A stretch of DNA of 64,000 bases from Yuukianura sp. NJ FZ-2021 (GCA_046563655.1 CM102290.1:8246001-8310000), one strand, 5' to 3'; positions 16,848-51,596 are shown, counted from the first letter of the stretch. Notes: generated by a model not told the origin, from the sequence alone. A program made the numbers and translations.

Positions 16848-19379
16848 ATGACTGTGTTTGAAGTGTTTGAAAAGAAGAAGGAGAGTACTGGAAAGAAAGA
16901 AACCTCGTCAAAAAACAGTGCTTCCGGAACCAGTAACAATGTCTCCAGTGGTCCTCTTCCAAACGTCATCCCACATCCAGACGGAGAAGTGACTGTGGCT
17001 GGAAGAGACTTACCCGAACCACACCCACATCTCCCAATCAGTTCTCATGTACAGGTAGGGATTTACTTTTAATCAATAACTGTACTGGTTTGTTGGTTAT
17101 TATATATGTTGCTAGTGTTCGTATTACATAATTCGGAATATCGATCGATGAATACCTTGTGTAATGAGGACTGTCTGTGGTATCAGTATATTCGCAAAGA
17201 GGAGGGACCTCACGGGCTAACTACTTCAATTTGATTTCAAACGTAAAGTTTAACGTAAGTTTGTCTTGTAGTCGGACGATAGTGCGCTTCGTGGCAATGG
17301 AACACTTCCGGGCGGGTCACATTGGTCGCATACCCAAAACTTGACATTGGTACACCCAAGTAACTCCGAAATTCGGCATGGCCAATCTCATTATGATTAT
17401 CACAAGGAACCTAGCGGAGGCCTTGGAAAAAGGCGTCGTCGATTATCACCTGTTAGGTGAGTTGTACGCGTCTTTTTTTTATGGAGAAGACTGATTTCTG
17501 AAGGTCAGGTTAGGCTTAGTAGCAAGAAATGACTTAATAATTCATTTTAATCACAGGAATACACGAACAAAGCTCAGCAGAGTGGATCGAGATCGTTCAA
17601 GTACTTCGTCTCCCAATACGTGTACTGCAGTCAGTTCAGTATACTCTATTCCATCTCCAACGATTGTTGAGTCGAAGGCTACTGCAGTTCTTTCGAGTTT
17701 GCCAATGGTTCCAAGTCCTGAGGGAAATGTCGTGAATTCAGAGGATGAATATGAGAATAAACCAACTGCACAATTAACTGAAGAAGAATGGATTGAGGTA
17801 GGAATCTTTAGTTTATGTTATGTACATAATACATAATACTATCTATGTATTGACGAGTGTATGTACAAAGTATAACTGTGTTTTTCTTTCAGCGAGAACG
17901 TCGATTCGACAAAAAGCTACGGAAAAAAGGACTTCGCATTAAGGAAATGGGAGAGGATGGAGCGTGTCTCTTTCGCGCAGTTGCTGATCAAGTATACGGA
18001 GATCAAGAAATGCACGACGTAGTTAGAAAACAATGCATGGATTATATTGTAAGTTATCTTGTTTGGAATCGAATTGTTTTTAAAATGCCTACCCTATTTC
18101 TTAACTGCAAGACTAATTGATTTTTCCTTTTTTAGGCTGCTAATCGTGATTACTACTCTCCATATGTAACGGAAGACTTTAAGCATTACGTGAACCGTAA
18201 GCGGCATGATAATTGTCACGGGAATCACATAGAGATTCAAGCAATGTGTGAAATGTACAATCGCACAATTGAAGTATTCTGCTATAGCACGGGTAAGTGT
18301 CTTCTAGAGTTACGTTAAAAAGGAAAGTTTCAAGTAGAAATATGTAGCTATAATTTATTTTATTTAAACTAGAACCCATCAATGCGTTCCATGGTGTTCA
18401 CCAAACCGACAATGCACCGATACGCCTCTCATATCACCGAGGAATTCACTATAACAGTGTCGTAGACCCCTACAAAGCTACTATTGGAGTTGGATTGGGT
18501 CTCCCTGGAAATCATCCTGGAATGGCCGACAAAAATATGCTGTCAGAAGCAGTTCGTCAGAACGAAGACATTCAAATTGAACAAGTATGTATCTGTAGTT
18601 ACATAAATGAAACCTTTAAAAATCATGTCTTCCGACCGGTCTTTCTTAGGCAATGCTGGAGGACAAGTTACTTGCTACTGATTGGGAAGCTACAAACGAG
18701 GCAATCGAGGAACAGGTATCAAGGGAGAGTTACTTGCAATGGTTGAAGGACAACGAGCGGCGAAACCGATCATCCGTAAGTACTGGCTATTGATTTTTTT
18801 TAAAGAACGTTACTAAAATCTTGTGTCTAACCTACTTTGCTCTAGATTTCTGCTATGGCTTCCAGTTCAACTTCTACTGTAACCTGTTCTTCTACTTCTG
18901 AGATTCGTCCTCCCCGAGCAAGGTCACACGGTAGCGGCAACTTATCTCCACTTGGGTCTCCGTACCGTAGCGATGCTCGTAATTCACCTTCTCGTCACTC
19001 CCCTCCGCCTTCCGTTGCTGGTCCAAGCAAAATGGCGAGCCCTAATCCACATTCTTCCTCTACTCTCCTCAATAACGGAATGTCACCACCGGAACACAAC
19101 AGTGCACTGGCATTCCAATTCATGGATCCGGAGAATTATGAACTTCCAACCTCCGATTTTGGTAATTTCAAAAGAAAAAATATCTAAACATTGCTTATCG
19201 AAACCGTTATAATTTCCATAGATCTGAACGAGTGGGATGATGCTGGTATTCTCGCTCAAGTTCTAGCGGCTTCCCAGCAAGAATATTTCGATAGTTTGAA
19301 GAGATCTCGGGAAATTAATAGCTCCAACGGCAACAGTTCTGCTACAGGTTGTCACCCGATTATTGAACACCAAGATTAA
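16848..19379 (+). CDS. OTUD5: OTU-domain deubiquitinase OTUD5/DUBA. Exons approx. 16848-17054, 17272-17456, 17557-17797, 17893-18048, 18136-18292, 18373-18585, 18650-18775, 18847-19161, 19222-19379.
   Basis: Contains the NSEDEYE phospho-activation motif, catalytic Cys box [31 protein letters not shown] and His box [12 protein letters not shown]. It also has [30 protein letters not shown] and a C-terminal [22 protein letters not shown] lies near 19956. Confidence 0.95.
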
Positions 19380-22300: not shown

Positions 22301-25294
22301 GGGTCGAGGAAGTGTGTGGTTCTTACAACACGTTTTTGAAGAAAACGACAATTGCCACCCATAAGTGATATGTCTACACAGTAAATACAATACGACGGTT
22401 TTCTTTTACTTGAGTTCTGACATCAGAAGGATCCAAGAGGCCTAAGGTGGGGGGTTACCGTGGCATGTCAACACAGTATTCCTAATTTATTCCAAGATCA
22501 CATTTTAATTTGTACACCGAATTGCTAAAAAACCCGAGGATCCTCACACAAGTCCGTCATTCATCACTCGTGTATCCTTCTTACAACAAGTGCTCTTCTA
22601 ATTCCTCAAAACTTTTTTAAAGTTTTTGTTTTACTAAAGTGCGCCTGCAGTGTTTTTATCTTATATTTGTTTAGATTTTAAAAATCTGAACAGCTATAAA
22701 AATAATAGTGACGCTTCGTGGTTTTTGCGGGGAACGCTTTATTGCCTCATCAGTTTTACAAAAAACGGACTAGGCGGCCCTTGACAAAAGAAACAGTAAG
22801 TCAAAATTATATAGTTTTATTCAATGTTTACACATAATGGGAAGTTTGAAGTTATGAAATTTCCTTTTCCTTGGGTTAGGTTCAGAGATGCTCCAAAGTT
22901 AGGTTGGTATGATGATAGTAATTTGGGGCACGAGAATAGGTCTAGTAATGGCCAAGTTGACACATCTCGAAATGAGTCAAATGTCAAGTGACCGAGACAC
23001 TTTTGCAGTAATCCGGACCACATCACCCGTTGTAGGGAAATTGTTGTGATCAGAAGGTGTAGGCCCCTCTTCCCATTATCACTTCATCACTCCAAACCTC
23101 ATCAGCCCAAGTGCCACGCACTTGGGATGAACCATTTCCCGTTAAAAACTGCTCCAATTAAGACATTTAGGTTGACTAAGGTAATAGTGACACACTGCCA
23201 TTCACTATTTTTAGGAAAAATATTTAAGTCCAACCATAAACTCGAAAAAGTTTTCGAATTTAGACATCACGAAGTTTTTGAACTTGGAAACTAAGATTTC
23301 TTGAAGCAATTTTGGAAACACGAAAACTCTGCAAATTTATTTATTTATTTTTTTTTTGAAAAATTGAATGAAAGTGGTTTGTCGAGAGAGAAAACTTTGA
23401 AGAGCGGTTTAACTAACTTTTACTGGCTAAAATTTCATCCAATTGTTCCAAATGAGTATTCATTTTGTTAATTAGTAGCATTCATTAATAGTATTAATTA
23501 ATTAACTTAATACCCAATTCGACCCCGACGAGTAATTGGGTAGTACCATTCAACCGAAAGTTAAGAAAAAACCGGCTTTGCACAAACAATTTTTATTACA
23601 CTACTTAAATAAAAAAAACTATCAATAAGTGTAGTGAATATGAATAGTGTTCCTAATTATTACAAGTTTACTCCAAACAAAGGCTCAAAGAATCTCATTT
23701 GCAAAAAAATGAAATCGAATTTTATTTTTAACATAAAGTCAAATTTCATTTCTAAAATGAAGTTTTACACACCAATTTCCCTCACACTTAGCAGTATTAA
23801 TAGGTAATCAATTAGCATATAAATGTGCAGCAACTACTATTTTTTAAAATAAAGTTGCTGCTTTATTACTGCTACATTACTTTACTGTAACGATGCTTCC
23901 AGAGAATTGTTTCTTAACAAGTTACGTTCAAATATAACTTAAAAGTGCCTGTCAAACGCATTCAATTAACTATCAACAAAAATTACTGCTGTACACCATG
24001 TTCCTTCCAAACTTTACTTATTGTAGTTTCTCTCTATGTTCGATGGAAGATGTGTTAAACCTAACCTAAAATAAATTTTTTGAGCCTATATAAGAACCTG
24101 ATTAATACCGTTCGACAAGTGAAAACTAGTTGTACAACTTGTGAGTAATATTGGTACATAGAAAGAGTGAAACTGATACTGAAAATCAATTAACAAAGTA
24201 GGAGCAACGATGAAGTATTTCACATTTTTAAAAAAGTATGGGACAAGTTAACTTATGTTCAGCGCATGTTAATTTTAGCCAAATGCAGCTACATAGAGAA
24301 AGTCAAGTGAAAGTGAAAATTACTCTTCTAAGGTTTTCTAGCGGCTCACACTTCCGTATAATATTTCAAAAAAATTGTTGATGTCCAAAATTTTTAATTT
24401 CATTTTCAAAACGAAAAATGTTTTTAGCCGCAATGTTTTTGGACTTAAATCCTTGTATACGTCATATGGAAACTGAGACTTTGGTTTTTATAAACAGGAG
24501 GAATTTTTTTTTTTTTCAGCCACACCAAAAACTCTCATGTTCTACACCCATTCGTCCCCTGTTTGCTAAACTAACTTTTTTTTTTTGAATTATGAACTTT
24601 ATTGTTGCTTGCAATGTCGTTTTGCTGGTGATTTAGAATTAAGAGCTCATCCGTGTTACATTTGTTGTCTGCTTCCAAATTCCTTTTTTATTCCCTCATC
24701 TTCTTCTTGTTTTTAAGGGAATGAGACTCAGGGAGAGTTTTGCAAGTGCAACCAGAACCTCACAGTAGTGACCTGACATTTAAGCAAACAACACTTAAAG
24801 AACGTGGTGCAACAAAAATTAAGTTTTTTTTTAGAGTAAAGTGCAAATAAAGTGAAATTAATTAAGAGAAAAAGTAAATCGTATCAAACATTTTTTGTAA
24901 AAGTTTACAGAAACATGAACTTTCATGAGGAAAATGTGTGAAGTGAATCGGAGTTGATTTTAGACTGAGGTCATGGGAGAAAAGAGTTTTAATGTAGTTT
25001 GTGCGTTAGAAATTTTTAAAAACCGTTTATTGTACTAATTCGATTTAATATTTTGAAATATCACTTTTTGGTTTAACAATTAATTGATTTGTTTTTCTCA
25101 GGTGTAGTTCCAGTTTTCAAAGATTTTGAAGATTGTCAAAAATTTCAAATCCGAATTTCAAAATTGTCGACTTTCTGAATCTACTGATATGAACTAGAAG
25201 TGAAAGGCAACGAAAATTTTTCAAACCAAATTCCTCTACCGAAGGAGAGTCTAATAAGGAATAAATATACGTTTTGTTAAACATATCCTTCAAA

Positions 25295-28200
25295 ATGCAT
25301 CGACGCTTCGACCTCTATCAATTTTCTCTTGCGCTGTACTGCATCATCGTACTCACGAGTTCATGCATGGGAGTCGGTATGAAACAGCGACATGCGACAT
25401 ACCGCAAGCGCCACATTCCAACATCCGTGAAGCTTACACCAAACTTCCTAACTTGTGGCCTACAGTGCTCCAACGTCATCACGTCTGAGTCAACTGAAAC
25501 ACCAACTCCAATGACAACTGATCTTCCTGACCTACTGTTTACCGAAGAAGATTCACTTGTGACCACTGAAATATCCATGACCACAACAATTCCTACAACT
25601 TTGACTGATCCAATTCCATCTCCGCCTCCAAGAGACTCAAGATCCCTCGTCACATCAACCGGCATGGAAATTACGCCTGGTCGACTCCAATTTGAAGAAC
25701 TCACAAAATTAATTAAACAAAAACGGCGTCAATGTGGCAAGAGTTTTGAAAACAACATTTCAGCTGAACTAGATCAAAAATCTAGACCGACTAACTTTAC
25801 TTGTGAAAAATTGAAACTATCCTCCTGGCTTATGGATCAACTGGAGAAGGAAACGACAGAGGTTCTCAGTTCCTATGTTCAACTAATTCGGAATCAAAAC
25901 GACACAATCTTTGGAGACGAAATGGAACTACTACCGGACAGTCGTACAGAACGATTTGTATTTGATTTAATTTCAACGTTTGGTGAACCAGTAGACAAAC
26001 TCCTATTCTACCAATTCAAAAAGTACACAAAATCTAGAAGTGTACAAGTCAGTGTTCCACATGTTGTAACGATTCAACTGGAACCAAGGACACATCCTGA
26101 AGTGGTCACTGGCAGAACACTGTTCGACCCCGGATTTAACATGAAACTCAAGTTTCCATTCTTCCATGACGAGCTGAGTAAGTTTCAATGAAAAATATGT
26201 TGGTTAATTTAAAATTTGCAGATTTTATTTATTTATAAAAAGTAGTTTTTGGAGTAATTTTGAGATTCTAAACAATGAGCCACTTAATTTTAGTGTAACA
26301 CAGCCCTAGGCCTCAAATTTTTATTTCACTAGTCCTCGGTGCGTAGTTCGTTTTACGAAATGCATCACATCATCTCATCACCTGGATTTCCCTCAAGTTC
26401 AAACTGCTTGACTTCTCTTGTGCAAAAATTCTTCCCCAATTCCGCACAGATTTCATCCATGCTTCTTCGTGTTTTTTATTTTATTTATTATCATGTGAGG
26501 CTTAAACGTTACATCTTTTCCTTAGATTTGAGTCATCTTTTTATCAAAGATTCAAGATTAGGTGAAGGCTTTAAGGAAAAAATTGCGTTGAGGCTTAAAG
26601 TATTAAACTCCTTTGTAAAAATACAACAACATCTTTGACACACATAAACGTTATGCCTTAAAACATTTTTTCTTTGAATTTGATTTAAAATGGTTGCGGA
26701 GCTAAAAAAAACTTTCATTAAAAGAATCAATTGTCAAATGTTTGACCCAATCTGTTTAGAAAAAAAAAGTTTGGTTTTGCATTTGAATATGCCGATCTCA
26801 CTTTTCTTTTTACAAGTTAACCTGTATGAGCCTAATAGAAATGCAGTTTGTTACAGCTTCAGGAGAATTGGTTTCACTTTCAAACAGGATTATAACATAA
26901 AGGTTTGTACATTGTCAATGAAAAAGTCGTTTGTCTTATTAGGCGATTGCTTCTTTGCACTACCATATTAATTTTGTGTCGTACAGAGGATGAGTCCTAC
27001 GTAAAAAGAATGCATAAAATGAACAGAAAGAAGTTCTTTTATTCATCTTCATGTCACATTTTCTGAAATCTCCTTGTTGAACTTGTAGCCCTTCCACCCT
27101 TGATTTCACATTTTCCAATTTCAAGATTCATAATTCTTTTTCTCTCTAATTCCCTTAAATGTGCAATTGGTTTGAGTACATATTTCCATAATTTTAATAT
27201 AAACTTATAAATTAAATAGAAATATTAATTTTTTATGTCTCGCAAAATGTCAGATACAATTTTTCTATTTGTCCGACAAATGTTGACAACCTAAATACAA
27301 TTTTTACTTTGCTTTGAAATGGTAAAATTTGGGATAGGCCATTTATACATGCCTGAAATTTTTGAATTAATTAAAATGAAGTGCAGTTTACAAATGGACA
27401 ACGTATGGAAATGCAGTTTCTAAGTGTCTGCAATTTGAATTAATTTGATTCTGTCAAAATGTCACTTGTCATCCGTAAGTGAAAAAGCGCAAGAAAACTG
27501 CACTTTACTACTTTTCACTTGTCTACATTTCATTCCAATTGCTAGGGTGTGCTAATTGTATACATTATTTGAAAGCACTGCTTTTGACCATAAATTAATT
27601 CAATTTTGTTACAAATAGACTCATTTACATTTCTTGTTGGAAATTACTTTTTTGGCAAAGGGTTTGACCTTGCAAGTGACATAAATGGATTTCACTTTAA
27701 TTTATCTTCGAGTTGTTCAGACGTGATCTTGCATCCTGCATTTTTGGCAAATTAATAACTGAAATTTCCGTAAATGTTTCGCGTTAAATTAATCGTCATC
27801 ATGGTAAAAGTTGCAACCAAGCAGCATTGTTAGCAAAAACAATTTCAATTCTTGTCATGAAATTTGAACTCGTTCCAAAATAAAATCTCACCACAGTCTA
27901 GAAAAATTTGAACTGGGGATGGAGCTTCAAACTCAAAATTTAAAAATTTCAGTTCAAATTGTTGGAGTAATGGCAAAAATGCTGGCCCCATGAAAAACGC
28001 ATCATCTTATTGTTCTTTTGTTTAAAAAAAATGTAAAGCAGTCATACGGTATTTTTTTTGCGCAAAAAAAAGGGAAATATTTGAAATAACAAGAAAATGG
28101 GACACGCAAAAAATAATTAAAAGCTTACAAAGTCATACAGCATGGGAAATTGAGGGAAGGCTAACCAAAATTTTTTCCGGAAGGGGTTTGTTTGAGTAAT

Positions 28201-30982
28201 TCTAAGCTTAACAAATTTGCAATTCTAAGGTATTAACATCCTCAAGTTTAAGTTTAAAATGCCATGTTACGGGGAATCCTTACCTTTTACCCTCAAGGAA
28301 TTTTGGGTTATGTTATGTAACTGAAGTTGGGAGAGAAAAAACTTTTTGTCACTGAAAGTTTACAAATATTTGTAAACATGTTTTTTTTTGCTGAATTTCT
28401 TGTTTTAATTTAAAAAAAACTGTTTCTAATCATGAGACTGTGAAAAACATTATGATTCCGCAGCGGACATGATGTTTTCTTTTTCTATTTTCCAAAAATA
28501 GTTTTAATTTTAACTTTAATTTTAATAGAATCTAATTTAAGTAATTTTATTTTTATTTATTCATTGTTTATATAAATAATTCACTATTCATTGCAATTTT
28601 TTTTGTCTTTGCAGAGGTTGCTGTTTCTACTGGACCAAGTTTTCTAGCTGGCGTTAGCGTAGGCCTGGTAGTTCTCGGAATCAAGAGTCTTTTCGCTCCG
28701 TTCCTCATCGCAATGAAGTACATGATGCTGAGCTGGTACTTTAAAGATATGGGTCCAATCGACATGGTCAAACAACTTGCTGGTCCAGTACTTCCAGCCT
28801 GGATGACCGGATGGCGACCACTCCCACCCCCACCACGCGGGTGGGACCACTCTCATGAACAATATGAGCCACCAAAACCCTACGAATTTGGTGGGGCAGC
28901 TCACGGTTCAGAAGGGAAACCCACAGGACTCATGGGTGCACTGACCCACTTACTTCCATTTACGTCTCAAGACCAACCGCCCCACTTTTCAGGTCCAAGC
29001 GGCATGTTCCAGACTGGTCCTAGACCCACTCACTACTCTGGTCCATCCGGAGGTGGATTCCGAGCCACACATTATGACGGTGAAGGGCGTACGCAGGTCA
29101 CACACTCATCTGGTTTCGACGGTGGGGCAGAAGAGCATCACAGTGAGCATGAGGAAGAAGGTTACCACGGAGAAGATCACCAGCCCCACCACACACCAGC
29201 ACAAGATGACGAAAGTAGTGGGTTCAAATATGTCCCACCAACTGCCCCAGTAGACGCTGACATCTTGGATCCATTCTACAGTCCACTCTTGTCCAGAATT
29301 GACTCAATTTTTATGCACTTGGGATTCACGGAAGAAGGCTGCAAAGAGCGTGCAGTTTGCTCCATTTACAAATTTCCTGTCAAATACGCTCCTTACTCAA
29401 ATCTCCTATCTGCTCAACTTTCCAAGTAAGATATGAAAAAAAATTATGAAAAATTGGTTACTGTAAAAAGAAGGAATGTCTAAAAACAAAACAAAAAGTG
29501 CAAAAGCAAAACTTTTCACACGAAAAATTGTGTTGAAATGAGAAGTTGATGGTTGAATTGGGCATGACAAAAGTGGAAACATCCTTATGTGCTTGACCTT
29601 GCACTTTACTAGTTACATTCATCTTGCTCTTTTGACACAGTTTGTGCAAAAATGCAATTGAACAAATTTTTTGGGAGGGAAAACACTTCGAAATTGTGGT
29701 CGTCATGCACAGGGCTTTTGAGGTCTCTATTAAATGGCACGATATATTAAAGTTAATTTGCTATTTCCAGGTCAAATAAGATTTAAAAAAATGATTGAGC
29801 GGCTATTAAAACGTCTGCACTCATCATTCGTTACGTATTTTACAACTTACCTGCTGACATAACACGTTTCATTTACTACACGTCCAAGTTTTTCTATAAC
29901 TCTGTAAACTGCATGCAGTGCATCGAATCCCTAAAACATTACTTGAGCAAATAGGTTTCCAAATTTGTTCTAAAGTAGTTTACATTATTTTCACTTAATA
30001 ATTTTGAGGATTTTTGGTATCATTTGTTGTCAGTTGCAATCTTCTTTCTGCTTATGAACGCATTGAAACTAATAATTAACTCATCATAATTAACTTTTCT
30101 CACACGTTCTCGTGCACAGTTCTAGTTCAGACCTCAAAAATTTGTAATCCAAAAGTTCCGCTCTAAGACAATAAGAGTCAAAAAATTTTTGAAAACGCAA
30201 ATAGTTTTTAGCGTATCCTCCTTTCTGCGTTTGAAATTTCGAAATTTTTAAACCCGGAATTCAAAACCGAGCGTTGTGTCTTTGTTTACCTAGCAAATCT
30301 TGAAAAGACATCTTCAGTGTCAGATGCTCAATGTTAAGAACGTCAAAGATGGGCCTGAGTCCCATCTTCGACTTTAGTTGCACATTGGTGAAATAGATGG
30401 AAGGAAGGATAGTAGGCGCAGACGATGAATTGATTGTTACATCTAAGTATGCAATCAGTGTATGTATTAATTAGAGCAGGATTAAGATGTGACCTCAATT
30501 AAAAGGAAGCAATTTTTAGCCTATCATCGTTTATTCTAATGACATACTAAAAATAATAACTTCATTTTATTGGCAGGGTGTGATATTTTTGATTTGTTAA
30601 TTGTTCAGTTGAGAGTAACATTTGATTTTTATGAATTTTGAAGGCATTTTGTTATGCAAAACTTTCTTTGCAATATTTCAGGCACCAAAGCGAGCTTAAG
30701 CGTCCTCTCAGCACTTCTCCTAAAATTTTACGATACTTCAAGTACATGAAGGCTGCCAAGGATGGACAAGCAGCACTCAATTGTATTGAACTCTATCCAA
30801 AATGTTCCAACGACACTGAAAAGCTTACAAATCTTCCAATGGTAAAACAAAAAATTTAGTATGAAAAAAAAATTTTATTATGAAATAAGTTAAAATTTGG
30901 ATTTGTATAATTTGTATAGGTTAAAACTTTTCAACAACTAACAGAATTGATGGGAACAACTGGAACAGGACCAAGTGGGTAG
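25295..30982 (+). CDS. Secreted or membrane protein with a C-terminal DM4/DM12-like Cys domain. Exons 25295-26177, 28615-29425, 30682-30841, 30920-30982.
   Basis: Has a signal-like N-terminus (FSLALYCIIVLTSSCMG). The phase-1 donor GTAAG at 26178 joins in frame to the acceptor at 28614, merging two separate ORF-track entries. The C-terminus reads CKERAVC..P.KYAP..RYFKYMKAAKDG..C..LYPKC. The family name comes from motif resemblance only. Confidence 0.7.
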
Positions 30983-37859: not shown

Positions 37860-40800
37860 TCAAGTCATGCGAATGTGATGGTTGTACCATGTTTCTACCC
37901 TCATTTCATCGGTCACAAGTTGTCCGGTGGCCAAAGTTGCAATGAGCAATGGGGTCGCACAGGTCAAAGTCCTTGAATCGTCTCTCGCCGTCGTCTGGGA
38001 GGTGGTCATCTACAATTAAAACACAAAATTAGTTTTTATTAAAGAACATTTCATTTTTTACTTTATTTTAAAACAGACATCGAAAAAGCATTTCTCTCAG
38101 CCTGCTTGAGATCATGCAACTAGCAATTTTTGCAAAAACTTTCTGCCAACCCTGTCGCACTTTAACTTTTTCGTAAATTTTAAAAGCGGTAGTCGCAAAG
38201 TGCTTAACAAGTGGTTCTGAATCCAGAAACTTCTAACTTTCCCTGGGGTTACGTGAGACATTGACAAAGTGTAGGTTAGCACGGAAGGACTTAAACGTTA
38301 GGTTATGTCTGGAAGTCCTGTTAGGATGCATTATGTCCAAAGTGGTGCCTACCCCTTTGAGCTCATCATCTCAAGTTTCCTACACCGCCGCGACCAGTCT
38401 TCAATGAACTTCTCGACAGATAACCCACCTTGAGTCGTTTATCTGAAGGCAAAGGAACCGTTAGCCACGACTCATCTTTCTTCCGCATCCAAAGCACCCC
38501 AGTCTCAATCAAAGGCCATTTCCGCCTTTCCTTTAACCAACTTACACTTAAAAACACCCGCCACCAATTCTCCAAAGTTCTAAAATTTCAAAACATTTCA
38601 ACAGAAACGTATTCACGCATACTTTTTGTTCGAAAGGCCTCTACCCCGCACTTTCACTGTGCTACTACTATAAAATTCACTTTATCTGCGATAGTAACTG
38701 CTGTCAGTCCCTTAGTATCGCTCAATTTTCCATTTTTTATGTGTAGTCAATGATTCGCTACAAGCCAAAGAACTTGTATCAAATCATTAATGTTTGTTAT
38801 TTGTTATTATTATTATTTTTTGATATTTTGGGAATTTTATTTTGTTGGAAGATGGCTAATTTTATTTTTAAATTCTTGCATTGTTTTAGAGTTTGGAGAA
38901 TGTTTTTTCGATTTTATCTTGTAATTTGACGTTATTGTACATTTTTTTTAGAATCTGGTGTGTGAAAACATGCTGTGCAGTTTCCCTGACCTTTAACAAA
39001 AGTGAAAAGAGAGAAGGACGCCTAAGGGAAGGAATTGAAACGAAACTGAAAGTGAAAAGCGCATCTTTGTCACGAATCTCTTGAACATAGGGATCATATA
39101 TACAAAGTATAGTTGCCAAATGGTGGATCTTTAGTTATCCTTTCCCATTCACAAAATGATCTCGTGGTAAAAAATATACAAAAGAGCAAGGCAAAAAATT
39201 GGAAGATGAACACGACAAAAAAAAATTTTCTTCAAAGATCAGCTGAGGGTGAGAGTAGGGCAGTCTCTGCCCATCGGCAGTCGAGTAAAAGTGCATCGCC
39301 CTTTAACGGTTCCGTTGAGGCCAATGTCTCACGTTGTTCCCCCTACGGCAAATTATAACTTACATTTAGGATCAAGCCAAGCCTCACCAGGAAGACAGAA
39401 GAAAACTTTCATTAAACTCTTAACGATAGGATCATCTCCCAAATTAACAATCAAAGAGAGAGAGAGTTAAGGAACTTGGGCACAGTTCGCTCAATTGGAA
39501 ATTAGAATCCAAAGGTTTCGTAATTAAGTTAAAAATAGGAAATGATTTATTTAATTGTACGAAATTAATTGATATTTTTCAAGATTAGTTAATTAACTCC
39601 ACTCGTGATAGGAATGTTAGCTAAGAATGTTAGGGTAGGGCACAAATTCAAGAAAAAAGTTAGGCTAGACCAGAAAAAATTGGATGTGAATAATTTTATG
39701 TCGACCTTCAAGATGTTGAGGAAGATACTTTTATTTACTACTCAATGGGAAGAATTTTTTATATTCCAAAAAATATTTTATAAAAAAAATTTTTTTTACT
39801 TAATTTTTTTCGTGTAGTGCATTTACTCTGAGAAATTGAAATCTGTTTGAGGAAGATTCAAAGGATTGAATAATTAGAGGGAGATGAAGATGTTAAAGGT
39901 TTTCAAAAAGAGAAAAAAAACTTGAAGAGGAAAAGGGGTGAATAGATATGTTTCCGGTGTATTTAGAAAATCCACTGATTTTTTTGTCATGCTCAAGTCT
40001 CACTTTTTTCAAAAATGATAAAAAAAAAGTATTTTATAAGGTTTTTTTTTCTGAAAAGTTTTTGATTCATTTCCGTAGTGTCGTCGTTGTCGGCTTGAAC
40101 TTGAAATCTTACAAGTGAAAGAACCTTATCATTTACTTCTATCAAGAGTGATGGCATTTTCATCTCTGTAAAGAAATCTCGTAGCACGTGGGTATAGTAC
40201 AAGGTGTTTCAATATAGCCTAGGTCAAGATTTTCATTTAAAAAAAACATAAAAAATTTTGAAAAAAAATTACACCAAAATTGAGCATGGACGAAGAAATT
40301 GAAGAAATTTTAAACACCAAATCTTGCCGTACAAATTAGGAAAATGATCCACGAACTTTCTAAGAATTGTAAAACGCCTCGTAATTTCACAGCCTCCTTT
40401 AATTTTTCAAAATAGAAAATGCTCTTTTCCTCTCTTTAAAAAAAACTTTTTAAAAAAGAGAATAACATTGTTCAAATGGATTGTGATGAAAATAAAAAGA
40501 AAGACCTTCTGAAAGACTGAAGATGGATCTGCCTAAAGGTTGCTCTTGGTGATCACTTTTCCTTTCAATTTGTTCAAGGTTAAGGCCAACCTAGCCTAAG
40601 AAGATGCCCTTCCGCCTTCCAGAAAGAGGCCCTTAAGGGCCCTTGCATTTTGGCATTAAGTAACCATTATGAGGTTCTAATGACCATAATACAGGAGACT
40701 CTCCCGAAGATATATTTAGCTTAGCCCTCCTCCGTTTCCAAAAACTTTAAAAGAAAAACCAATGCAAAATGCTACCTGTCAACAAACAGAACTTTTTTCA

Positions 40801-42578
40801 AGGAAAATAAAATATTCTCCGGATAAGATCAGGTAGTAATGAGCATGGCCCTGGCCCTTAAGTCCAGCAGATCCAATGAAGATGTTATGACATAACAATG
40901 GGTAGACTTCAATGAGGACCAACTTAACCTATCGATCATGGTCACTCCTTGGGCTAACCAATCTGGCCTAAGAAAAACCTAAGGGTCTCGAAATTGCACA
41001 AAGTCTCTAATTTCCAACATTTTTGGAAATCTAGCCTTCAACTACTACTTATTTATGTTTGAAATTTATGTTCCTCCAATTTCAGAAGTGACAACTTAAG
41101 TAATAAAATGGAACCAAATGTTTTGCCCAGAGGTCAATGGAAAAAAAGGTTCAGCAAAGAGTCATTTGACACTCGAAAAATCGATTGGATTTTTGCACTC
41201 AAAGGAAGCAAAAAGGATTTTTTTTTAGAAAAAAAAGTCATATGTCAATACAAAGTTCAAGTTATCATGTGACGCCTGGGAATTTTAGACAAAACAAGTC
41301 AATCGAACAGTACGACTGCCAACTTGGCAGTGGCAAGTGATCTCATGTTGCTGAAATTGCACTTGGTCTGGGATTTTGGTAACATTGTATTATTAGTATG
41401 TGACACTTGAGACTTTTTAGTAGACTGATGGGAAAATGGTTTTGATCTACTTCCAGCACCTACTAAAAACCACTTAACACTTTTGCCACTGGACGGAAAG
41501 TGGGATTCATCCTAGCAACTAACTTCCTGCTCCTCGTCTTACTAAATAGGAAAGAGGTTAATGTTGACATTAGCATGACAAGCAACTTCTACCGTAACTA
41601 GAACTAGACACACAAAAATTCAGAAATCAGCACAAGTTCTCAAATTGCTAAAAAAAAGTGTTGCAAATGCTAAAATAGGCCTCCTCAAGTAGCTTCAAAG
41701 TTTTTAAATACTATCCAAAATTGGGGTTGTGACATTATTACGCAATCACACAGCAGGGGGTGGATTTTGGGGGTGCATTATACCTGTTAAATAATTGTTG
41801 ACATTTACAAACCCGCTGCTGCCCGTTGTAGTATAATAGTATAGGTATGAGTCATCAGAAACGGTATTTTGCTGTTGACGTAATAATGTCCTAACATAAC
41901 TTCTGTTAATGACCTTTGCGATTTTACTTGGAAATGAGTGCCATTTTTTGTAAATTAAAACACTACTTGAAAATAGTAAACATAAAATTAAAATAAATGG
42001 GGCAGCACATGAGAAATTTTAGACTTGCTTTATGCCTTTATCCAATAAGAAAAGTTGACATTTAGAGAAAATTGGAAATTGTCTTAATTGCAATTTGCAA
42101 TTGAAAGTTTTTTGTTTTCAAATGTAAACACGCTGTAAAACTTTCATATCACCTGTAATTAAGTTTCAAACGTACACACGCTTGAAAAGAAATCAAAAAG
42201 CACAATGCCTTAGTCAACATTTTCTCTATTGTTTCCCTTTGTATATAATCTTTTTCTCCCATTGTTATAAAAAAGGAAAGTGTTCACCACAAACTGTGTC
42301 ACCCGTCTTAAAAGCTCTATTTTAAATCAACCCCATGAGATAAAATGGACAACAGGGATTTGACACGGTTGACGGATATGGCGGGCTAACCTTATTTTTA
42401 CCTCCTGTCCCGTTTCAAAATAAAATTGGAGCCAATTTTCAAATTTTGTTTCCAAAAAATTATGAAAAAGTAATTCAAAAGGATCACCTACCCCTTGTTC
42501 TGTTGATCCAAGATTTGATCCAGTTCGGTCTTCCTCGTTCGACTCCAGCGAAGCTGTTGTAGATGCAGCAGTGTTCAT
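37860..42578 (-). CDS. Putative third cistron of the pri-type transcript, a spliced 78-aa ORF (exons 42578-42492 and 38009-37860)
   Basis: This is the next ATG after the two LDPTGLY ORFs (aaaATGa). The donor GGG|GTAGGT at 42491 and the pyrimidine-rich acceptor TTTTAATTGTAG| at 38010 join in frame. The product is MNTAASTTASLESNEEDRTGSNLGSTEQG-MTTSQTTARDDSRTLTCATPLLIATLATGQLVTDEMRVETWYNHHIRMT. I recognise no homology. Confidence 0.4.
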
Positions 42579-42721: not shown

Positions 42722-42763
42722 CTAGTAGAGACCGGTTGGGTCAAGTTTTTGTGGTGGGTCCAT
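42722..42763 (-). CDS. pri: tarsal-less/polished rice/mille-pattes-type micropeptide 2: MDPPQKLDPTGLY
   Basis: The minus strand reads aaa ATG GAC CCA CCA CAA AAA CTT GAC CCA ACC GGT CTC TAC TAG. It has the same LDPTGLY motif, with only synonymous differences from peptide 1 (CTC/CTT, GGC/GGT, TAT/TAC, TAA/TAG). Confidence 0.93.
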   Translation of the reverse strand: MDPPQKLDPTGLY

Positions 42764-42907
42764 TTTGATTTTGATGGAGGCAGAGCGTGGGAAAATTTGA
42801 AGTGAAAGTGATGCGGACTTTCTCCCGCCGAAAAGTGTTGTTGCTACTGTTTTAAAGAGTGAAGCTGAAGTTTCTTTGCTGTAAGCTTCCGGATAGAAGG
42901 CCGGTAC

Positions 42908-42949
42908 TTAATAGAGGCCGGTTGGGTCGAGTGTCTTGACGGATTCCAT
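42908..42949 (-). CDS. pri: tarsal-less/polished rice/mille-pattes-type micropeptide 1: MESVKTLDPTGLY
   Basis: The minus strand reads gcc ATG GAA TCC GTC AAG ACA CTC GAC CCA ACC GGC CTC TAT TAA. The C-terminal LDPTGxY is the defining motif of this family, and the start context gccATGg is strong. Confidence 0.93.
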   Translation of the reverse strand: MESVKTLDPTGLY

Positions 42950-43261
42950 GGCAATACAAGTTGATGTTGGAGAGGTCACAAGGTCAAGTTGAGCAGGCCC
43001 AAAAGTTGAAAGGGAGAGATGTACGGAGAGGTTTGTGACGGTGTGTAGCAAGTGCTGATGTGACTTCTGTTCGTTCCTGAGGAAGGATGTTTTGGTAATG
43101 AGCTGAAGTGGCCGAAAGGAAGGGAGTTAAGTGGTTCCTTTTCGTTTTCTTTTTGGCTACTGGCTTTACCTTTCCTCACTACTAACTTCAGATGCCCAAA
43201 TACACTAGAGGATCCAAGAAAAGCGCTAAGGTTTAAACTGTTCCGCTCAAAGTTTCAGTTG

Positions 43262-43268
43262 AAACTGA
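43262..43268 (-). promoter_or_regulatory. Candidate initiator (TCAGTT) for the pri-type transcript
   Basis: The arthropod Inr consensus TCAGTT occurs on the minus strand. It is followed by a ~310-nt leader with no ATG before micropeptide 1. No TATA box is seen. Confidence 0.35.
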
Positions 43269-46200
43269 AGTTCGGAGAGTAAAAGCGGCGTACTTTTCTC
43301 CGGTGAGGAAGGGCGGGCAGGGAGGAAGCGGATTCAAATGTACTGAAGTAGTGAAGGACAACCCCGTTTGGCCCCGCCGAGCCCCTGCCCCGACCTCACG
43401 ACCACAGGAACTTGGACGTTGACATTCCCCATTCGAAAAAAAAATCGAAATTTCCCTCTCCTTCCTTAATACTTCTTTGTGCCCAGTATATGCTGATGAT
43501 GCACCCATGAGGAAGAGGTGGCTCTTGCTTTTTTGGTGGTGGGAGGTTTAGCCACGAGAATCTTCGACAGAAGTCCAACAACAATGGTTTTTTTGTCAGA
43601 GGGAACTTAACGGTAACTGTTTATTTAGGTAGCCTCAAGGCCCCACCCCACCAAAACATTGACCAAACGTAAAAGACTTCCCTGACCCCTAAAGACAAAA
43701 CGTTCCAAGACTTGTCCAAATGTCACTGTCACTCTTGACTAAGTTAACAGTTTCAACTTGCTTGGCCAAAAAACTGCCGGTTCAAATTAAACGTACAACC
43801 ATACTGCTAAATTAACGAGTATGCGATACCAAACTAAAAATTCGAATAGTATTTGTAACAATGCCGCACGAATTGGAATCTCTCATCACGTCCAGAGCCC
43901 GGAAAGATCTGAGGAGAAACTTTAAATAAGTAATAAAAAAATAAGTTTTTAAATAACAAAAAATTCTGGGATTAAAAGTGAAAAGTGATCCTATCAAAAA
44001 CGGCTCAAATTTTGTTATCCAAAGTTCAATTTTTTCATGTATTTGCCGGCAAAAAAGAAAGAAGAAAATGTTTCCAACAAATTTTTTGTTGGCACTTTAT
44101 TTATGTAATTGATTTGGTTGTTAATTTACAAACGTTCCTGCTGTTTTCTTTTATTTTGTTTTCATATTTTGAAAACCGAGCCGCAATATTAGATTTTGTA
44201 ACACAAAATTGAAATTAAAAGTCAAATCAAACTAAATTGTATGAATGTGGGATAGGAATAAAAACTTTTTTCTCGCTCGATCTTGTTCAGGTGAGATTCC
44301 TGATCCTGAATGTTGATCTCCAGGAAAAGATTTGTTGAGTATCCACATCTCCTTACGTAATACTATCATTGTTGAGCCTCTCATTCAAATGGGAAGTCAA
44401 GAATCAAATACAACAAAAAAAAGTATAGGGGTGAAGCATCCCTATACACGTATAATTTCCAAAGTTATTAATTCCAGTCCTTAAATGCCTTTATACCTAT
44501 TATGCGTTTTATTATATTTTCTAGGCTTATTAGTAGTTTATACAAGTCACAAAAAATCTTGAATCTGGAACTTGTTTTCACCCCAATCTTTTATGAATAT
44601 CAGGTTTTGTACACCGGACTCAGATACAAAAAGTTACTTCCTTCTCTTTTTGGAGCTCCCTATTAATTCTAGATGCATCTGTAATGAAACAGGAAAACAA
44701 AAGGTCCAGGGACCAAATCTTTTGATTCAAAATTCAAACTGGAAGATCCACAAAAACTTTTCACTTTTTTGGATTATGAATAAACGAAGTTCGTCCGTTG
44801 GTCTAATAATAACTTTTGCTCCAATTAATTTCAAATCCTGTCAAATCTTTTATAACGACGTTTAAAAAAGGTTCCTCCAAGTTCAATTTTTTTAAATTAC
44901 AAAGTTCAAGTTCAAGGTAACCCCAAACATGATGTATGGCTGGTCTTCGAACAACGGTTTCTGAGAAGCCGGAGGCAGTTTCAAAAAATAGCGTTTCAAA
45001 ATAGGGATATGAGGCAGTTTTTTGAACATTTACATACAGGATGAATAGGAGAAGACAGTTAGGTCAAGTGTAGGAGACTCTTCATTTGTAGCCTTAATCC
45101 TTAGCACTTTCTCTGGACCTAAAAGGTTAGGCCCCCTCAAGTGACCTCAAGCGGAAAGAAGGTCCAGGTCGAGCAGAGACTTTCAACTTGAATAAAATTC
45201 GGTTCTATTTTGGGTGCTAATTTTTGGGAGCCCTTAAAGGGGTTGTATCCTTGGCAAGTACTTTTGTCTCTCTCAAAATCTTTGTTCTTTGTAATAAAAG
45301 TTCTTTTGGAATTGACTAAAAGTCCTCCAGAAAAACTGACAATTCTTTTAGCAACTTTTCAAATCCAAAGTGACAGAAAAGGAGAGTGAAAGGGACATTG
45401 CCGTTGAGTTAAGAAGGGCCCTTACATTCATCCCTCTTCGAGCTCAAATGTACACAACCAACGAGCAACCCACCGGTTTTTGTAGTTACTTTTACTGGAC
45501 AAACGGTTACTCACAAGTGTGTGAAAGTGAAAAATTTAATCTATTTTTAAATATCCCAATTTGGGAAGGTCGAAAAGAACAGTTTTAGTACTTTGAAACT
45601 TCAAACTTCTACAAAAAGTTCGACATATTTTTTTAAATGCTAAGTTTATTAAAAACACTACCATTCAGGAACTGTTGACTTTATGATCTGGAATTGTTAA
45701 ATATCCGATTATACCAACACACTTGATTTTAACTATTGACGAAATTGTATTTCAAGTTCTAGAAAAAACTGGGTAAAAATTGGAAACAACAAAATTTATT
45801 TTCTTAGTGATGATAAATTCGGAAACCAGGAGATATCTATTATTAGTACATGTACAATTATTGAGATACTGGAAATTGTGGATAAATCTGGAAAAGGGTA
45901 GAGTGTGACATTTCAATTGTTGTCTCAAGGACGAGGTCAAATACTTCCAGGGTCAACTGGTAGTCGAAGCCCTTTGAGTTAAGTACAAACATAATGCCGC
46001 AGAATTATTTTGAAGTGGTTACACCATTTTCAATAAACTGGAATTCACAAATCGTTACAACTTTACACACAAGATTGAAAATTTTTAATTGTTACAGGAA
46101 GCATTATAGGTTCAAATTTTTTAAAAAGTAGACAAATTTTAGTAGTGTGAAGGGAAGCCGGTATCTAATTGTATTGTAGAAATTAAGTCAACATGTAATT

Positions 46201-48694
46201 TTCGATTAGGCAATGTACTCAAGAGACATTAATTGTCCGACTTGTGCATTAATAGAGTTGTTTCCAAACACCGAAGTATGATAGATAACACTAAGTTTAT
46301 TAACCCAGCACATCCAGACAGCTTCACACCAGACATACAGTCTCTCCAGTTGTATCAGGTATCCAGGTCAGTCTTCGGCTATCCAGAGGCGCTAAAACTT
46401 TTTAATGTTCTGGATCAAATACCATTTACGCCTTTTAGACAGTAATTGAGACAGACTAATTGTAGTTTTAATTGACTGATCGGATGATCAGTCTGTAGCG
46501 TCCAATGACTCAAACAACAAAAGCGTGAGAAGGGTACTGGTTTTGCAGGCGGCGTGGCTAGACTACAGTGAAATGTTATGCCTGCGAAGTTGCAGGTCAT
46601 TTCTAGGACATTGACCTTCCAAAGGATTTGGAAAAAACCTTACGGTACTGCATGTAAAGTCATTAGAATTTTCTATTTTCTCCTAAAAATAAACTAGGAG
46701 CGAGCGGTATTAAGGTATGATGGATGCATTTGCTTCAATTCCATAAATAAATACTCTCACTAGCATACAACTTTTGCCTTTACAACAAAAGCGGTAAACA
46801 CCTTTCCTTTGCTCAAAAAAATTTCACTAGCAAAAATACAAGTCAAAAAGTTTTACTACTTAATTATAAAAATCTATACAAATTGTATTAAAATCGGATT
46901 TACTTTCGAAAAAAGAGTAAAAAAAAGAAAAGTTCGAAAGAATCGAAACACGCTATTAAATACAAACATTAGAAAAGCTGTAGTAATTTAGAGTAATCAG
47001 CAAATCAACGCTAGAAAAACTTTCCAGTTTTTAATTCACAACTTCGTCAAATTAAAAAAAATTTGCAGTCACTTTCCAATGATGAATGGTCGAGGAAGAG
47101 AAATTTCACCTTGCCATTGGATGACTCGTTCGTAAACTTATGATCGTTGCAATCCCGTTACTCAATCCTATGATTCGTCCGGAATGAATTGTGGTTGAAC
47201 TGATCCGGAACAAATGCTTCGTGCAGATTCGCACACACACACAAAAAGTGCAGTTATTTTGCAGAAAAGCATAACAAATACATAACATAAGTAGAGATGA
47301 GGCATCCACTTCCTTGGAAATGGGTTAAGGAAAGTCAATCCTCTGGCTGGGAACTAACGGGACACGTTCTCACTTAAACACAGGGTGCCCTACCTTAGAA
47401 GGAAGTCGCTTCCCTATGAACATTTCCATCTTCTCGAAATTTCTTCCGCATTGATGACTCTTCTACCAGGATTCATCTTATCCCAACATGGAATTGCAAT
47501 TTAAAACAGTCAATTCATCCTTTCCCTTGGGTTTTAACTAAGGAGAAAGAAGGAAGTGAAGGAAATGAGGGGCAGAATGTGATGGAACGTTGAGGTAGCG
47601 CAGTTTAAAAACAGCAATTGCCAAAACACTGCGCCAAAACCACTCAACACTCTTCACCTTCTGTGGATCATGAATAATTGATGACGTTCTCAGGCTAATA
47701 CTGACCAGGTCAATGACTCAATCGCCTCCAAACAAAACATTGCACATGAAAACATAAGGTTTTGGCCTTAACTAAACGAAACTTCCTGAAAAATTTGATG
47801 AGATCATCACTTTTCCATAAGCACAATGTCCAATTCTTCTACAATTTGAAAATAATTAAACTCTTCCAAATAAAAAAAAGTCAAAAATTGATCCCGGCAA
47901 ATTTTCGGTTTACAAAAAAAAAATTAGCTGAGCATCATCTTTAGTTTATCTGCGTTGCATCTGCAGTTGGCGTAAATCCATCAATAATTTTTTAAACTTT
48001 GTTTTCAATATACACACAGCGTTTCAAAGTGTGCAGAAGCTACCCTAACAATTTCGGAAAAGTTGACAAAATGTTTCGAAAAAGTTGGAAAAAAAAGTGA
48101 GCTTGGTTAAGGTTAGACTGTAATTTGTCTAAAAAAGTTATACGTTATCCTGTGGGAAGGGAGGGTTCAGAGGTGTGATTTCCTCGTTGTTGTCTCTATG
48201 TTAACTTATTAACTAAGCAAAAAGAAGAAGATGGTGGTGAATCGGTGTAAACACTGCGGAAGTGCCTTCTCCAAACTTCATCTTTCTCTAACACCCAAAG
48301 TCATTCACACCGCGACCCAGATTCTCCCAGATTGTTTAGTTTTTTTTCTCACTTTTGGCAAGTTCCTCTTGAGACAGGCCAAATACAAATGAAAATGACT
48401 TTTCCTCATTCAAAAGGCCACTAGCCATAGCCACTTTAACTTTACTTCTCAATGGACTTGAAGCCTCTCTCAAGTAACTCACAAACTAATCACCACCACT
48501 AACATTTGAGCATCAATTCCTCCAATCTCAACCTGTCACACCACTTTACCAACTAATTAATTCAAGCATTTTTGCAAAAAAAAATCTCAAAAGTTCCCAT
48601 AGCCTTACTTCCCCATGTTTATTCCAAAATTTACTCCAAAGACGGAAATGTAATAAAGTTCTGGAATTAATTGGGCAACTTAATTTGGAAGTGT

Positions 48695-51596
48695 TCACAG
48701 TTTGAGAAGATCCCCATAAGCGTAAGCAGCCAAGGCCAAGATTGGAGATCCCGTTGGCGTGTCTGGCACTGAAAAGGCAATTGTTTTGCTCAAAATATGT
48801 TTCAAATTGAGTTTCAAATTTTAAAGTAAAGAAAAAAATTCTCGTTGGCTTACCATGTCCACTTGATCCGGCGATGTCAATGTGTGTGTACTTCAGTGGT
48901 TTCTCACTGTTTACTCCATGCTAAAACACAACAACGAGAAAATTTATGTGAATGAATGCCGTGAAAGGGAGGACAGTATGATCATACGAGTGTTGTGAAT
49001 TATGTAAACGGTGACTTTAGAAGACAATTTAAATGTCAGCAACCTTTACGAACACAAAAGCTTGAAGTCGCAAAGGTTAACCTGATTATGTTGAGGAGTC
49101 TTAAAGGAAAGCTGCTTTTTACCTTGTCCAAACCTGAAGCCAACACCATGAAAGCAGCTGGGAATTGATGACCACGAGCAGTTTGAGAAGACGCTTTGTT
49201 GTTGCATTGCAGTAGGTCGGCATCCCCATCATTCGGAGCTAAAATTTTAAGTGACAAATACTTTTCAAAAACAATTTAAATTCCAAATTTCAAAATTAAA
49301 CTCATGATTCATGAATTCGTGAAAGAGGAGAGCGAGCACCCACACTTGACAAACTTGTAGTCTTCACGTCGGATGGTGCTAACATCAATCATGTCACCCA
49401 AAGTTTCTCCAGCCTCCTGCAAACGGTGGGCTGATTTAGCGAGTCTAGCTGGTCCATTGTCCAAAACTGCTGTGTAGGTTCCGACGGCGAGACATGCATG
49501 TCCAGTCAGAGTTGCTGGAAAACATAAGTACATAACGCGTTACCGAAGCATTCAAATGAGCGAATGAGGTGTTTTCGTATTTAAACAAAACCTACCGATT
49601 GTCATCAAGTGAGGATTAACTTCATTCAGAGCCAATTCCTTCAACTGTTAAGATCAAATATTAACATAAATGTCTGGTATCGTAAAAGGGCTCCACACAA
49701 TAGAACAAGTGAATCTGTACCTTGCACAAAACGTCAGTCATAACCATGCGACCTTCAGCATCTGTATTTCCGATTCGCATGCGTACTCCAGCTCGGCTCG
49801 TAATAATTTCATCAGCCACTGTAAACGATAAGGTACACAAAAGGTAGAATTTTAATCCTGGACAATTTCTGGAAGAATAGTTCAAAGCTCATCTTCACCA
49901 TAGCATTCCTCTCCAATAGAGTTCCGGGCCACCGCCAAAGCTCCAATTGCCTTAATGTTGCTTGGAGCAAAGTGCACCAACGTCTGTTTAAAACGGTGTC
50001 AATATTTATTAGGGAAAAGTGGGTAAAATAGGATAAAATCCGCAGGAATACCGTTTGACAAGATGCTTACTTGAAAAAAGCCGACAACATTTGAAGCTCC
50101 ACATTTATCACGAGACATGCCAGCCTATTTGAAAAATGATTTAAATAATATATCAGGAAATTCAATTTTTTAATTGGATTTCTCAAACCTTCCAATTTCT
50201 GGGAATGAATTTTTCTTACTAAATAAGTACTAAAAGTATATTTACCATGATGCCACCCGCCTTCACATCAGCGCCACCTATACACAATGCAACATTGTAT
50301 ATTCAGAACTTATGAGGCCAGGGTACTTTAGCATATAATTCGTGTGAATGAACATATTCTTTACCAGTGTCATAGGTGATTCCCTTTCCGACGGGTAGTA
50401 GAGTCTGTGTAATCTTGCCTTCACCAGTATACCTCAAGAAAATAATTCGGCCTCGGTGTCGTTCAACAGCTTCAAAAAAAACAACAACAATATTTTAGCA
50501 ATACTCAACTAAAACCAGCTTTCTAAACATATTGGCTACCATTTGCTGCGCGATTGACTGCTGCGAACATTGGGTATTCCTTCTCGAAAACGCGAACATC
50601 ATCTATGATTTCGACTGAAACTTTCGTTCCGTGAAACAAGTCCTTGACGTAGGCAGCAAACCTTGGCGGGGCCATTCGTTCTGGATCAGCTCCACCCAAA
50701 TCTCGAGCAACGAACCGTCCACTTTCCAATCCCATCGCAAGCTTACAAATTTCACCGGAATTTTCGCCATGAGCATGGAATCCAAGTTCAGTGAGCTTTT
50801 GTGCTGTGGGTCCAACCGCTTCGCGGTACTGAAGTGGCTGGATTTAAAAAAAAAAAACTCCTTCAGAAAGTTTCTCAAAAGTTGAGTTTGAAATGTTTGC
50901 AATATATAATTCACCTTATAAAGGCTTTCGCAAGCACCGAGGAGAGTACAGAGAGCAGCAGCATGCTGATGGACCTTCTTTTCTGGAATAACCACAAGCA
51001 AAGCTTCGGTTGCTCCTGCGCTGATAGCTCTGTTAACACAAAAAAACACAATCAATACTAAACTGAGCTGAAGAAGCAGAGCTTGATAATTAGCACTTAC
51101 CGCTTAACACCTTTGGCTGCAGCTTCGGCGTAAGATCGTGGATCGTAGTACTCATGATCAGAATGGACCGGCGCATAAACCAATCGGGTCGTTGACCCGT
51201 TGCCGAGTGGAAGCAAAGTACCATCCTCCTCTACAGTCTTGTCAATCTGACGACCAAACGTAAAACAATGTTATCATCAACCATTATCTAGATCACAGCT
51301 AGGAATTCGACACTGGTGCTTTCCAAGCTGTTCATTTAACACTTTTTCTAAAGCTTTACTTGTCTATAAATGTCACACAAAAGCAAATTACGGAAATTTC
51401 CCTGGGTAGGGTACATGACAATTAAAACCTATGAAAAGTTTTTAACCTGGGCCTGGCTGGAGAGCACTTGGAAATACTGAGCAGCCGCCTGCTTCACGTA
51501 GTCCAAGTTAGCCGCAACGCAAATGATGGCGCCATACTTCGTACTTGCGAGGTTGTCCTCCGCAGAGAGCTTACACGGAAGGCGATATCCATCCAT
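48695..51596 (-). CDS. M17 family leucyl (cytosol) aminopeptidase, about 14 coding exons
   Basis: Motifs include ESGRFVARDLGGADPERMAPP, EKEYPMFAAVNRAA, GKGITYDTGGADVK, MSRDKCG, IGNTDAEGRMVMTD, TLTGHA, RGHQFPAAF and YTHIDIAGS. These are M17 metal-binding and catalytic motifs, resembling the invertebrate W07G4.4-like subgroup. Confidence 0.92.

Follow-up and report, generated by a model that had tools for sequence, protein, structure and literature searches.

The simplest reading of the 64,000-nucleotide stretch of DNA analyzed here (the window) is that its minus strand very probably carries a functional orthologue of tal/pri/mlpt in the ancestral two-cistron form, an assignment made from sequence that starts with two small open reading frames (smORFs) of type A (Table 1). 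Two tandem 42-nt ORFs of this kind, lying 144 nt apart on the minus strand and each ending in LDPTGLY and a stop, had been claimed in a preliminary description of the same DNA, and both were seen again in a read of the minus strand and in a six-frame motif scan. ORF1 reads ATG GAA TCC GTC AAG ACA CTC GAC CCA ACC GGC CTC TAT TAA, and ORF2 reads ATG GAC CCA CCA CAA AAA CTT GAC CCA ACC GGT CTC TAC TAG; as the minus strand is read, the two are in one frame, with the 144 nt running from the stop of the first to the ATG of the second. Over the LDPTGLY codons they differ at 3 third positions, all synonymous (Leu, Gly, and Tyr), and in the choice of stop, and an alignment taking in 60 nt on each side finds their flanks unrelated. 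The further claim that the motif differs at synonymous sites only, behind N-termini that have nothing to do with one another, thus holds as well.

Table 1. Features of the window on and around the two-smORF locus, with the corresponding peptide pairs of three related metagenome loci.
Feature	Location	Strand	Details
Type-A smORF 1 (ORF1)	42908..42949	minus	MESVKTLDPTGLY + TAA stop; 13 aa, 42 nt with stop
Type-A smORF 2 (ORF2)	42722..42763	minus	MDPPQKLDPTGLY + TAG stop; 13 aa, 42 nt with stop
Inter-cistronic spacer	42764..42907	minus	144 nt, without ATG (from the ATG list)
ATG-free stretch, taken as 5′ leader plus core promoter	42950..43424	minus	last upstream minus-strand ATG at 43425
Conserved block with Inr-like TCAGTT (43268..43263)	43249..43301	minus	83% identity over 53 nt to L063:171-223
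83-aa ORF, third ATG	42327..42578	minus	starts 143 nt past the ORF2 stop; probably not a gene
Short collinear block common with L063, CATATCCGTC .. GTGTCAAATCC	42356..42380	minus	blastn 84% over 25 nt, E = 0.05
Conserved non-coding block with palindrome GTTATG-T-CATAAC	40870..40947	minus	78% identity over 78 nt to L063 (L063:2405-2471)
DUF1676/Osiris ORF, long, single-exon	25265..26191	plus	Pfam 24.9 bits vs cut-off 24.3
Long single-exon ORF	28545..29429	plus	no Pfam match
Peptide pair of L063			METVKTLDPTGLY / MDPPQKLDPTGLY; spacer 142 nt
Peptide pair of L064			MDVIKTLDPTGLY / MDPPKKLDPTGLY; spacer 202 nt
Peptide pair of L004			MDPPKKLDPTGLY first, then MEPVKKLDPTGLY; spacer 151 nt; first ORF 113 nt from contig start

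For peptides of this size the first question is whether two short ORFs could have come by the same ending through chance, and a length of exactly 13 aa is indeed shared by 3% of the ATG-initiated ORFs in the window. The trinucleotide frequencies of the window itself, however, predict LDPTGxY followed by a stop 3.7e-5 times per window, both strands counted, as against the two found within 228 nt. In 200 mononucleotide shuffles of the window, LDPTG turned up 0.025 times per shuffle and never more than once in any of them, and even the shorter DPTG occurs just twice in the six frames of the 64 kb, in ORF1 and in ORF2. The expectation and the shuffle counts exclude chance, which the conservation of the ORFs in three other loci refutes as well. 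Nor do the ORFs belong to any DNA-level tandem repeat, since Tandem Repeats Finder returned no rows for the region from 38 to 48 kb.

Those three loci, L063, L064, and L004, come from metagenome contigs. The preliminary description had set conservation in related species beforehand as a condition for its reading, and both 13-aa peptides are indeed present in all three, with almost exclusively synonymous differences. Each locus has, like the window, the pair M[ED]x[VI]K[TK]LDPTGLY and MDPP[QK]KLDPTGLY, separated by spacers of 142-202 nt and preceded by ATG-free leaders (266-483 nt where measurable). Unlike the window, L004 has the MDPPKK-type ORF first, and it may be that a further ORF upstream of it is cut off at the contig start. 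Spacers and most of the non-coding DNA cannot be aligned between the window and these loci. In a MAFFT alignment with L063 over 2.7 kb, the ORFs stand out as islands within diverged sequence: ORF1 has 6 codons changed synonymously, 1 changed non-synonymously (Ser to Thr), and a different stop, and ORF2, whose peptide is identical, has 5 synonymous changes, no non-synonymous ones, and again a different stop.

When the ORFs of the window and the three loci are taken together, the 7 residues of the motif are invariant in all 8. Counted over motif and stop, there are 2 variable columns at codon position 1, 1 at position 2, and 8 at position 3; the position-1 changes are exchanges between CTN and TTR leucine codons, and the one at position 2 is TAA against TGA. 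All three stop codons are used, at a constant position. Since the amino acids of the motif are fixed while third positions and stops vary, the pattern points to a translated peptide, and not a nucleic-acid motif, as the target of selection, and the purifying selection on the peptide that had been proposed earlier is well founded on eight ORFs with an invariant motif, variable third positions, and unalignable spacers. The rival view, that the repeats are kept at the nucleic-acid level without being translated, for example as a binding site in RNA or DNA, draws on the caution of Galindo et al. (PMC1852585) that conservation of amino acids and of nucleotides is hard to separate at such lengths. 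For the present ORFs, however, the third positions of the motif all vary, leucine codons switch between CTN and TTR, and three stops are used at one fixed position behind a fixed peptide. Moreover, the N-terminal residues are largely kept too (MDPP[QK]K), and Rfam has no match at gathering thresholds anywhere in the window. In Drosophila, a frameshift in a single type-A ORF is reported to abolish function (PMC1852585). An untranslated element is, in sum, very improbable.

Identification as a tal/pri/mlpt orthologue, also put forward in the preliminary description, is supported by the tandem same-strand smORFs with LDPTG(L/Q/T)Y and by the conserved peptide pair in L063, L064, and L004. The family has been described across insects and crustaceans (PMC1852585; see also PMC3136413), with the consensus LDPTG(L/Q/T)Y in peptides of 11-32 aa that are present in two to several copies (10.1101/667022). 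The sequence features by which we would recognize a member are all found here: smORFs of about 10-32 aa with that consensus (two 13-aa ORFs); at least two tandem type-A ORFs on one strand, separated in this case by the 144 nt and no ATG; conservation at the level of the peptide rather than the nucleotides, as seen in the 8 ORFs; a context that permits translation, with the first AUGs consecutive and in good initiation contexts; and a host within Pancrustacea, as judged from the DUF1676/Osiris ORF (24.9 bits against a cut-off of 24.3) and from leads in the Atlas clusters. Among known genes, that of Tribolium has exactly the same LDPTGLY-stop motif but three type-A smORFs (PMC4612599) instead of two, and tal/pri of Drosophila melanogaster has four. 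Two LDPTG smORFs of 11-14 aa, as in the window, are reported for mlpt of Rhodnius prolixus (10.1101/667022), and the tal homologue of Daphnia pulex is grouped with the two-ORF genes (PMC1852585). The same source describes two type-A ORFs for crustaceans and primitive insects and regards the two-ORF gene as the ancestral form.

On the minus strand, the gap from the last upstream ATG to that of ORF1 measures 476 nt, and only one gap is longer among those separating the 2,074 ATGs of the two strands (mean, 61.6 nt). The next minus-strand ATGs after it are those of ORF1 (42949), ORF2 (42763), and a downstream ORF of 83 codons (42578). These are the sole three ATGs in about 850 nt, and windows of 850 nt with 3 or fewer ATGs make up 0.19% of such windows on either strand. 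The start contexts are gccATGg for ORF1 and aaaATGg for ORF2, and a purine at -3 and a G at +4 accompany all 8 starts of the window, L063, L064, and L004. In composition, C is abundant and G scarce on the minus strand between about 43100 and 42600, and T is abundant below about 42500. The spacer between the ORFs is barely alignable to not alignable with the relatives (z = 2.6 for L063 and 0.4 for L064). Its length falls within the 33-206 nt range of the spacers in the 39 multi-ORF metagenome loci described below and is comparable with the 111, 126, and 334 nt of Clogmia (PMC6124123).

We infer a transcript, its translation, and, by homology, a mechanism that would follow the one described in other insects. 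A single minus-strand RNA, starting probably near 43266, would have an ATG-free leader of about 320 nt and carry the two 13-codon ORFs, 144 nt apart and each with the LDPTGLY-stop ending. Ribosomes scanning this RNA would meet the AUG of ORF1 first, translate that ORF, and re-initiate at the second AUG, that of ORF2; ORFs that are the first AUGs and have strong start contexts fit the re-initiation model put forward by Galindo et al. (PMC1852585). If the peptides behave as they do in Drosophila, Tribolium, and hemipterans, they would work together with the E3 ligase Ubr3 and set off proteasomal processing of the N-terminus of Shavenbaby/Ovo, and this processing would turn Shavenbaby from a repressor into an activator in the development of epidermis, legs, and segments. 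For Shavenbaby, 10.1101/667022 reports an N-terminal processing that depends on Ubr3, is carried out by the proteasome, and makes an activator out of the repressor, and a role of the mlpt/Ubr3/Svb module in segmentation and appendages is reported for Tribolium, Oncopeltus, and Gerris (PMC6428570).

Outside the ORFs, a small number of non-coding blocks are held in common with L063, which has, like the window, an Inr-containing block upstream and further blocks downstream. The upstream block (Table 1) aligns with L063 at a local score of 61, as against a maximum of 27 in 200 shuffles; in L064 no significant match to it was obtained (score of 20 against a shuffled maximum of 25). TCAGTY has a single match between 44500 and 42950, at 43268, within this block, which is a candidate core promoter and transcription start. 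On the other side of the ORFs, the block at 40870 lies 1775 nt from ORF2 in the window and 1745 nt in L063, and it includes one 17/17 run and a longer near-perfect run with a perfect palindrome inside it. It could be a 3′ UTR element of mlpt, an enhancer, or a site for a transcription factor. The short block at 42356 is weak taken alone but is collinear with the other blocks that match L063, as are further small ones at 41453..41431 (E = 0.05) and 40783..40761 (E = 0.001). The downstream blocks as a group are presumptive 3′ UTR or enhancer elements. For the blocks labelled d1 and d2, substitution-only matching gave no match in any locus.

These blocks also bear on whether the locus might be a non-functional or redundant copy of a real mlpt gene elsewhere, a retrocopy or recent duplicate with ORFs that are intact by chance. 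In Bombyx and Lutzomyia, the whole gene is reported to have been duplicated independently (PMC1852585), and a canonical poly(A) signal was not found nearby: the minus strand has neither AATAAA nor ATTAAA between ORF2 and position 40403, and hence the transcript would have to extend over about 2.9 kb or more, rely on a variant signal, or be spliced. Against a redundant copy, both ORFs are intact, with good start contexts and an ATG-free leader, and non-coding blocks are collinear with L063 both upstream and downstream. A locus with collinear blocks on both sides looks orthologous and constrained, and not like a retrocopy; we therefore regard the redundant copy as decidedly unlikely and retain the functional orthologue.

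The third ATG opens the 83-aa ORF. A three-cistron gene, in which this ORF is a lineage-specific extra peptide like smHemiptera, would add to the two-cistron reading and not replace it. The case for it is that ORF1, ORF2, and the 83-aa ORF take up the three ATGs of that 850-nt stretch, that ORFs of at least 83 aa are 1.9% of the ATG-ORFs in the window, and that hemipteran mlpt is reported to have two LDPTG smORFs followed by an ORF of about 80 aa, named smHemiptera (10.1101/667022), which the present ORF matches in length and position. However, the 83-aa ORF has no homologue among 5.8 billion proteins, nor, at E <= 0.001, among 1.84 billion representatives, and all tblastn matches in the 69 metagenome loci had E > 4. 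Nor is it conserved in the relatives: L063, L064, and L004 have no counterpart downstream and no downstream ORF common to them (all E >= 0.18), the first ATG past the last type-A stop comes after 17 nt in L063 and 9 nt in L064, and the start codon of the window's ORF has no aligned match in L063 (MAFFT). An AlphaFold2 single-sequence model reached a mean pLDDT of 54, with one helix at residues 33-55. Moreover, smHemiptera is described as a conserved ORF of about 60-80+ aa with a coding sequence interrupted by two introns (10.1101/667022), as against one continuous frame here. Thus a third cistron is quite unlikely, and with no homologue, no conservation in relatives, and a poor model, the 83-aa ORF was set aside as probably spurious.

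ORF-B, the other, longer downstream ORF known from the family, is described as present only in some holometabolous genes and is not treated as defining for the family (PMC1852585); its Arg-rich consensus of the GREETSSCRRRR type (PMC6124123) is absent from the 83-aa ORF, which has no poly-Arg stretch. The window thus has no equivalent of the holometabolous ORF-B, and its own downstream ORF is unrelated. A more elaborate proposal can be entertained at low probability: the 83-aa ORF, or its first 29 codons up to a GT at 42491, would encode a third peptide, young and confined to this lineage, that ribosomes would reach by re-initiating once more after a spacer of nearly equal length (143 nt against 144 nt), in parallel to the independent gain of smHemiptera in bugs, and the three blocks at 43249..43301, 42356..42380, and 40870..40947 would serve as the core promoter and as control elements that are hormone-responsive or lie in the 3′ UTR. 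As a separate observation, repeated words resembling AAATTTTG(G)AAA (for example, 'aattttgacaaaaattttggcaccaaattttgaaattttggaaa') flank the start of the 83-aa ORF between 42430 and 42640 on the minus strand; they are low-complexity A/T sequence that is not conserved in L063.

The plus-strand ORF with a DUF1676/Osiris domain has as relatives three proteins (P0001-P0003) at 49-53% identity, themselves with DUF1676 at 33, 22.5, and 22.7 bits. For the second long single-exon ORF, the nearest Atlas clusters are arthropod CG12920, DM4_12, and DUF1676, with feature scores of at most 0.86, which are to be read as leads only. Together, the two ORFs could belong to an Osiris-type cluster situated some 14-17 kb away from mlpt. 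The arthropod host of the preliminary description finds support in this DUF1676/Osiris neighbor and in the arthropod Atlas clusters, and the literature allows it to be narrowed. Osiris genes are reported absent from Daphnia and Ixodes and are said to have arisen early in insects (PMC3284338), and they are called insect-specific in the abstracts of PMC12825958 and PMC7084798; mlpt, for its part, is described as confined to Pancrustacea and missing in chelicerates and myriapods (10.1101/667022). With a DUF1676/Osiris neighbor, the host falls inside the known range of mlpt and, on these sequence grounds, is most likely an insect.

Two other regions of the window have open frames of some note. Between 17495 and 19187 on the plus strand, a run of open frames resembles the exons of one gene, and one of these frames, 18354..18746, has a match to the OTU domain in structures of human OTUD5, at the C-terminal end of that domain (3tmo, E = 4e-17), with no Pfam match. 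On the minus strand, an open frame at 48546..48920 contains KPLKYTHIDIAGSSG, likewise with no Pfam match; we take this stretch to resemble the C-terminal HxDIAG motif of M17 leucyl aminopeptidases.

To a specialist, none of this will be surprising. The locus is an added member of a well-known family in its expected two-ORF form, and since the literature predicts a two-ORF LDPTGLY gene in an insect, what is known of the family is unchanged. The value lies elsewhere. First, the locus is an example of a functional gene, on the reading preferred here, that is invisible to ORF finders based on length; and, second, annotating it would give developmental biologists an entry point to the mlpt/Ubr3/Svb switch in the host species.

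The metagenome contigs were scanned with a degenerate pattern for LDPTGLY-stop in which F was also admitted at the two Leu positions. The scan gave 69 loci, and in 39 of them at least two ATG-started smORFs of 40 aa or less, ending in DPTG.Y and a stop, lie on one strand. Two cistrons are present in 33 of these multi-ORF loci, three in 3, four in 1, and six in 2 (the cistron and spacer counts leave aside an overlapping-frame call in L005 and L013), and 27 of the 39 have no extra ATG between the first start and the last stop. The 39 loci should not be equated with independent lineages, because many are near-duplicates, as in the case of seven copies of MTLDPTGLY / MEDSSYLDPTGLY. In L010 and L014, of 2.3 and 1.4 kb, respectively, the contig ends in a sense-strand run of 10-12 A after AATAAA, and both ORFs are near the 5′ end; the AATAAA and the terminal poly(A) mark the two contigs as transcripts bearing both ORFs, which gives indirect support to a single polycistronic, polyadenylated RNA. 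Of the 30 other loci, most consist of a single match with no ATG upstream and are probably due to chance or are the C-termini of other proteins. Truncation may explain four with one ATG-started smORF each (L019, L030, L031, and L041), and in L029 one such smORF sits close to the contig end, next to an unrelated DPTG match. That a single scan with one degenerate pattern yielded 39 multi-ORF mlpt-like loci, with 2 to 6 cistrons, means that the family can be mined without annotation, and these environmental loci, a by-product of the present work, may be useful as raw material for studying how cistron number evolves.

A few of the scanned loci have layouts of their own. L066:102-736 on the plus strand and L067 and L059 on the minus strand have four to six LDPTGLY cistrons spaced 33-98 nt apart, the last of which, at 27-30 aa, begins with an Arg-rich N-terminus (MIERHQRSVQQILRRLRQRVD.PLDPTGLY), a layout unlike that of the window. 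In L005 (1989-2212) and L013, which have three cistrons, an ATG further upstream offers a second start for the middle LDPTGLY peptide, and the resulting ORF of 36 aa overlaps the first cistron in a different frame.
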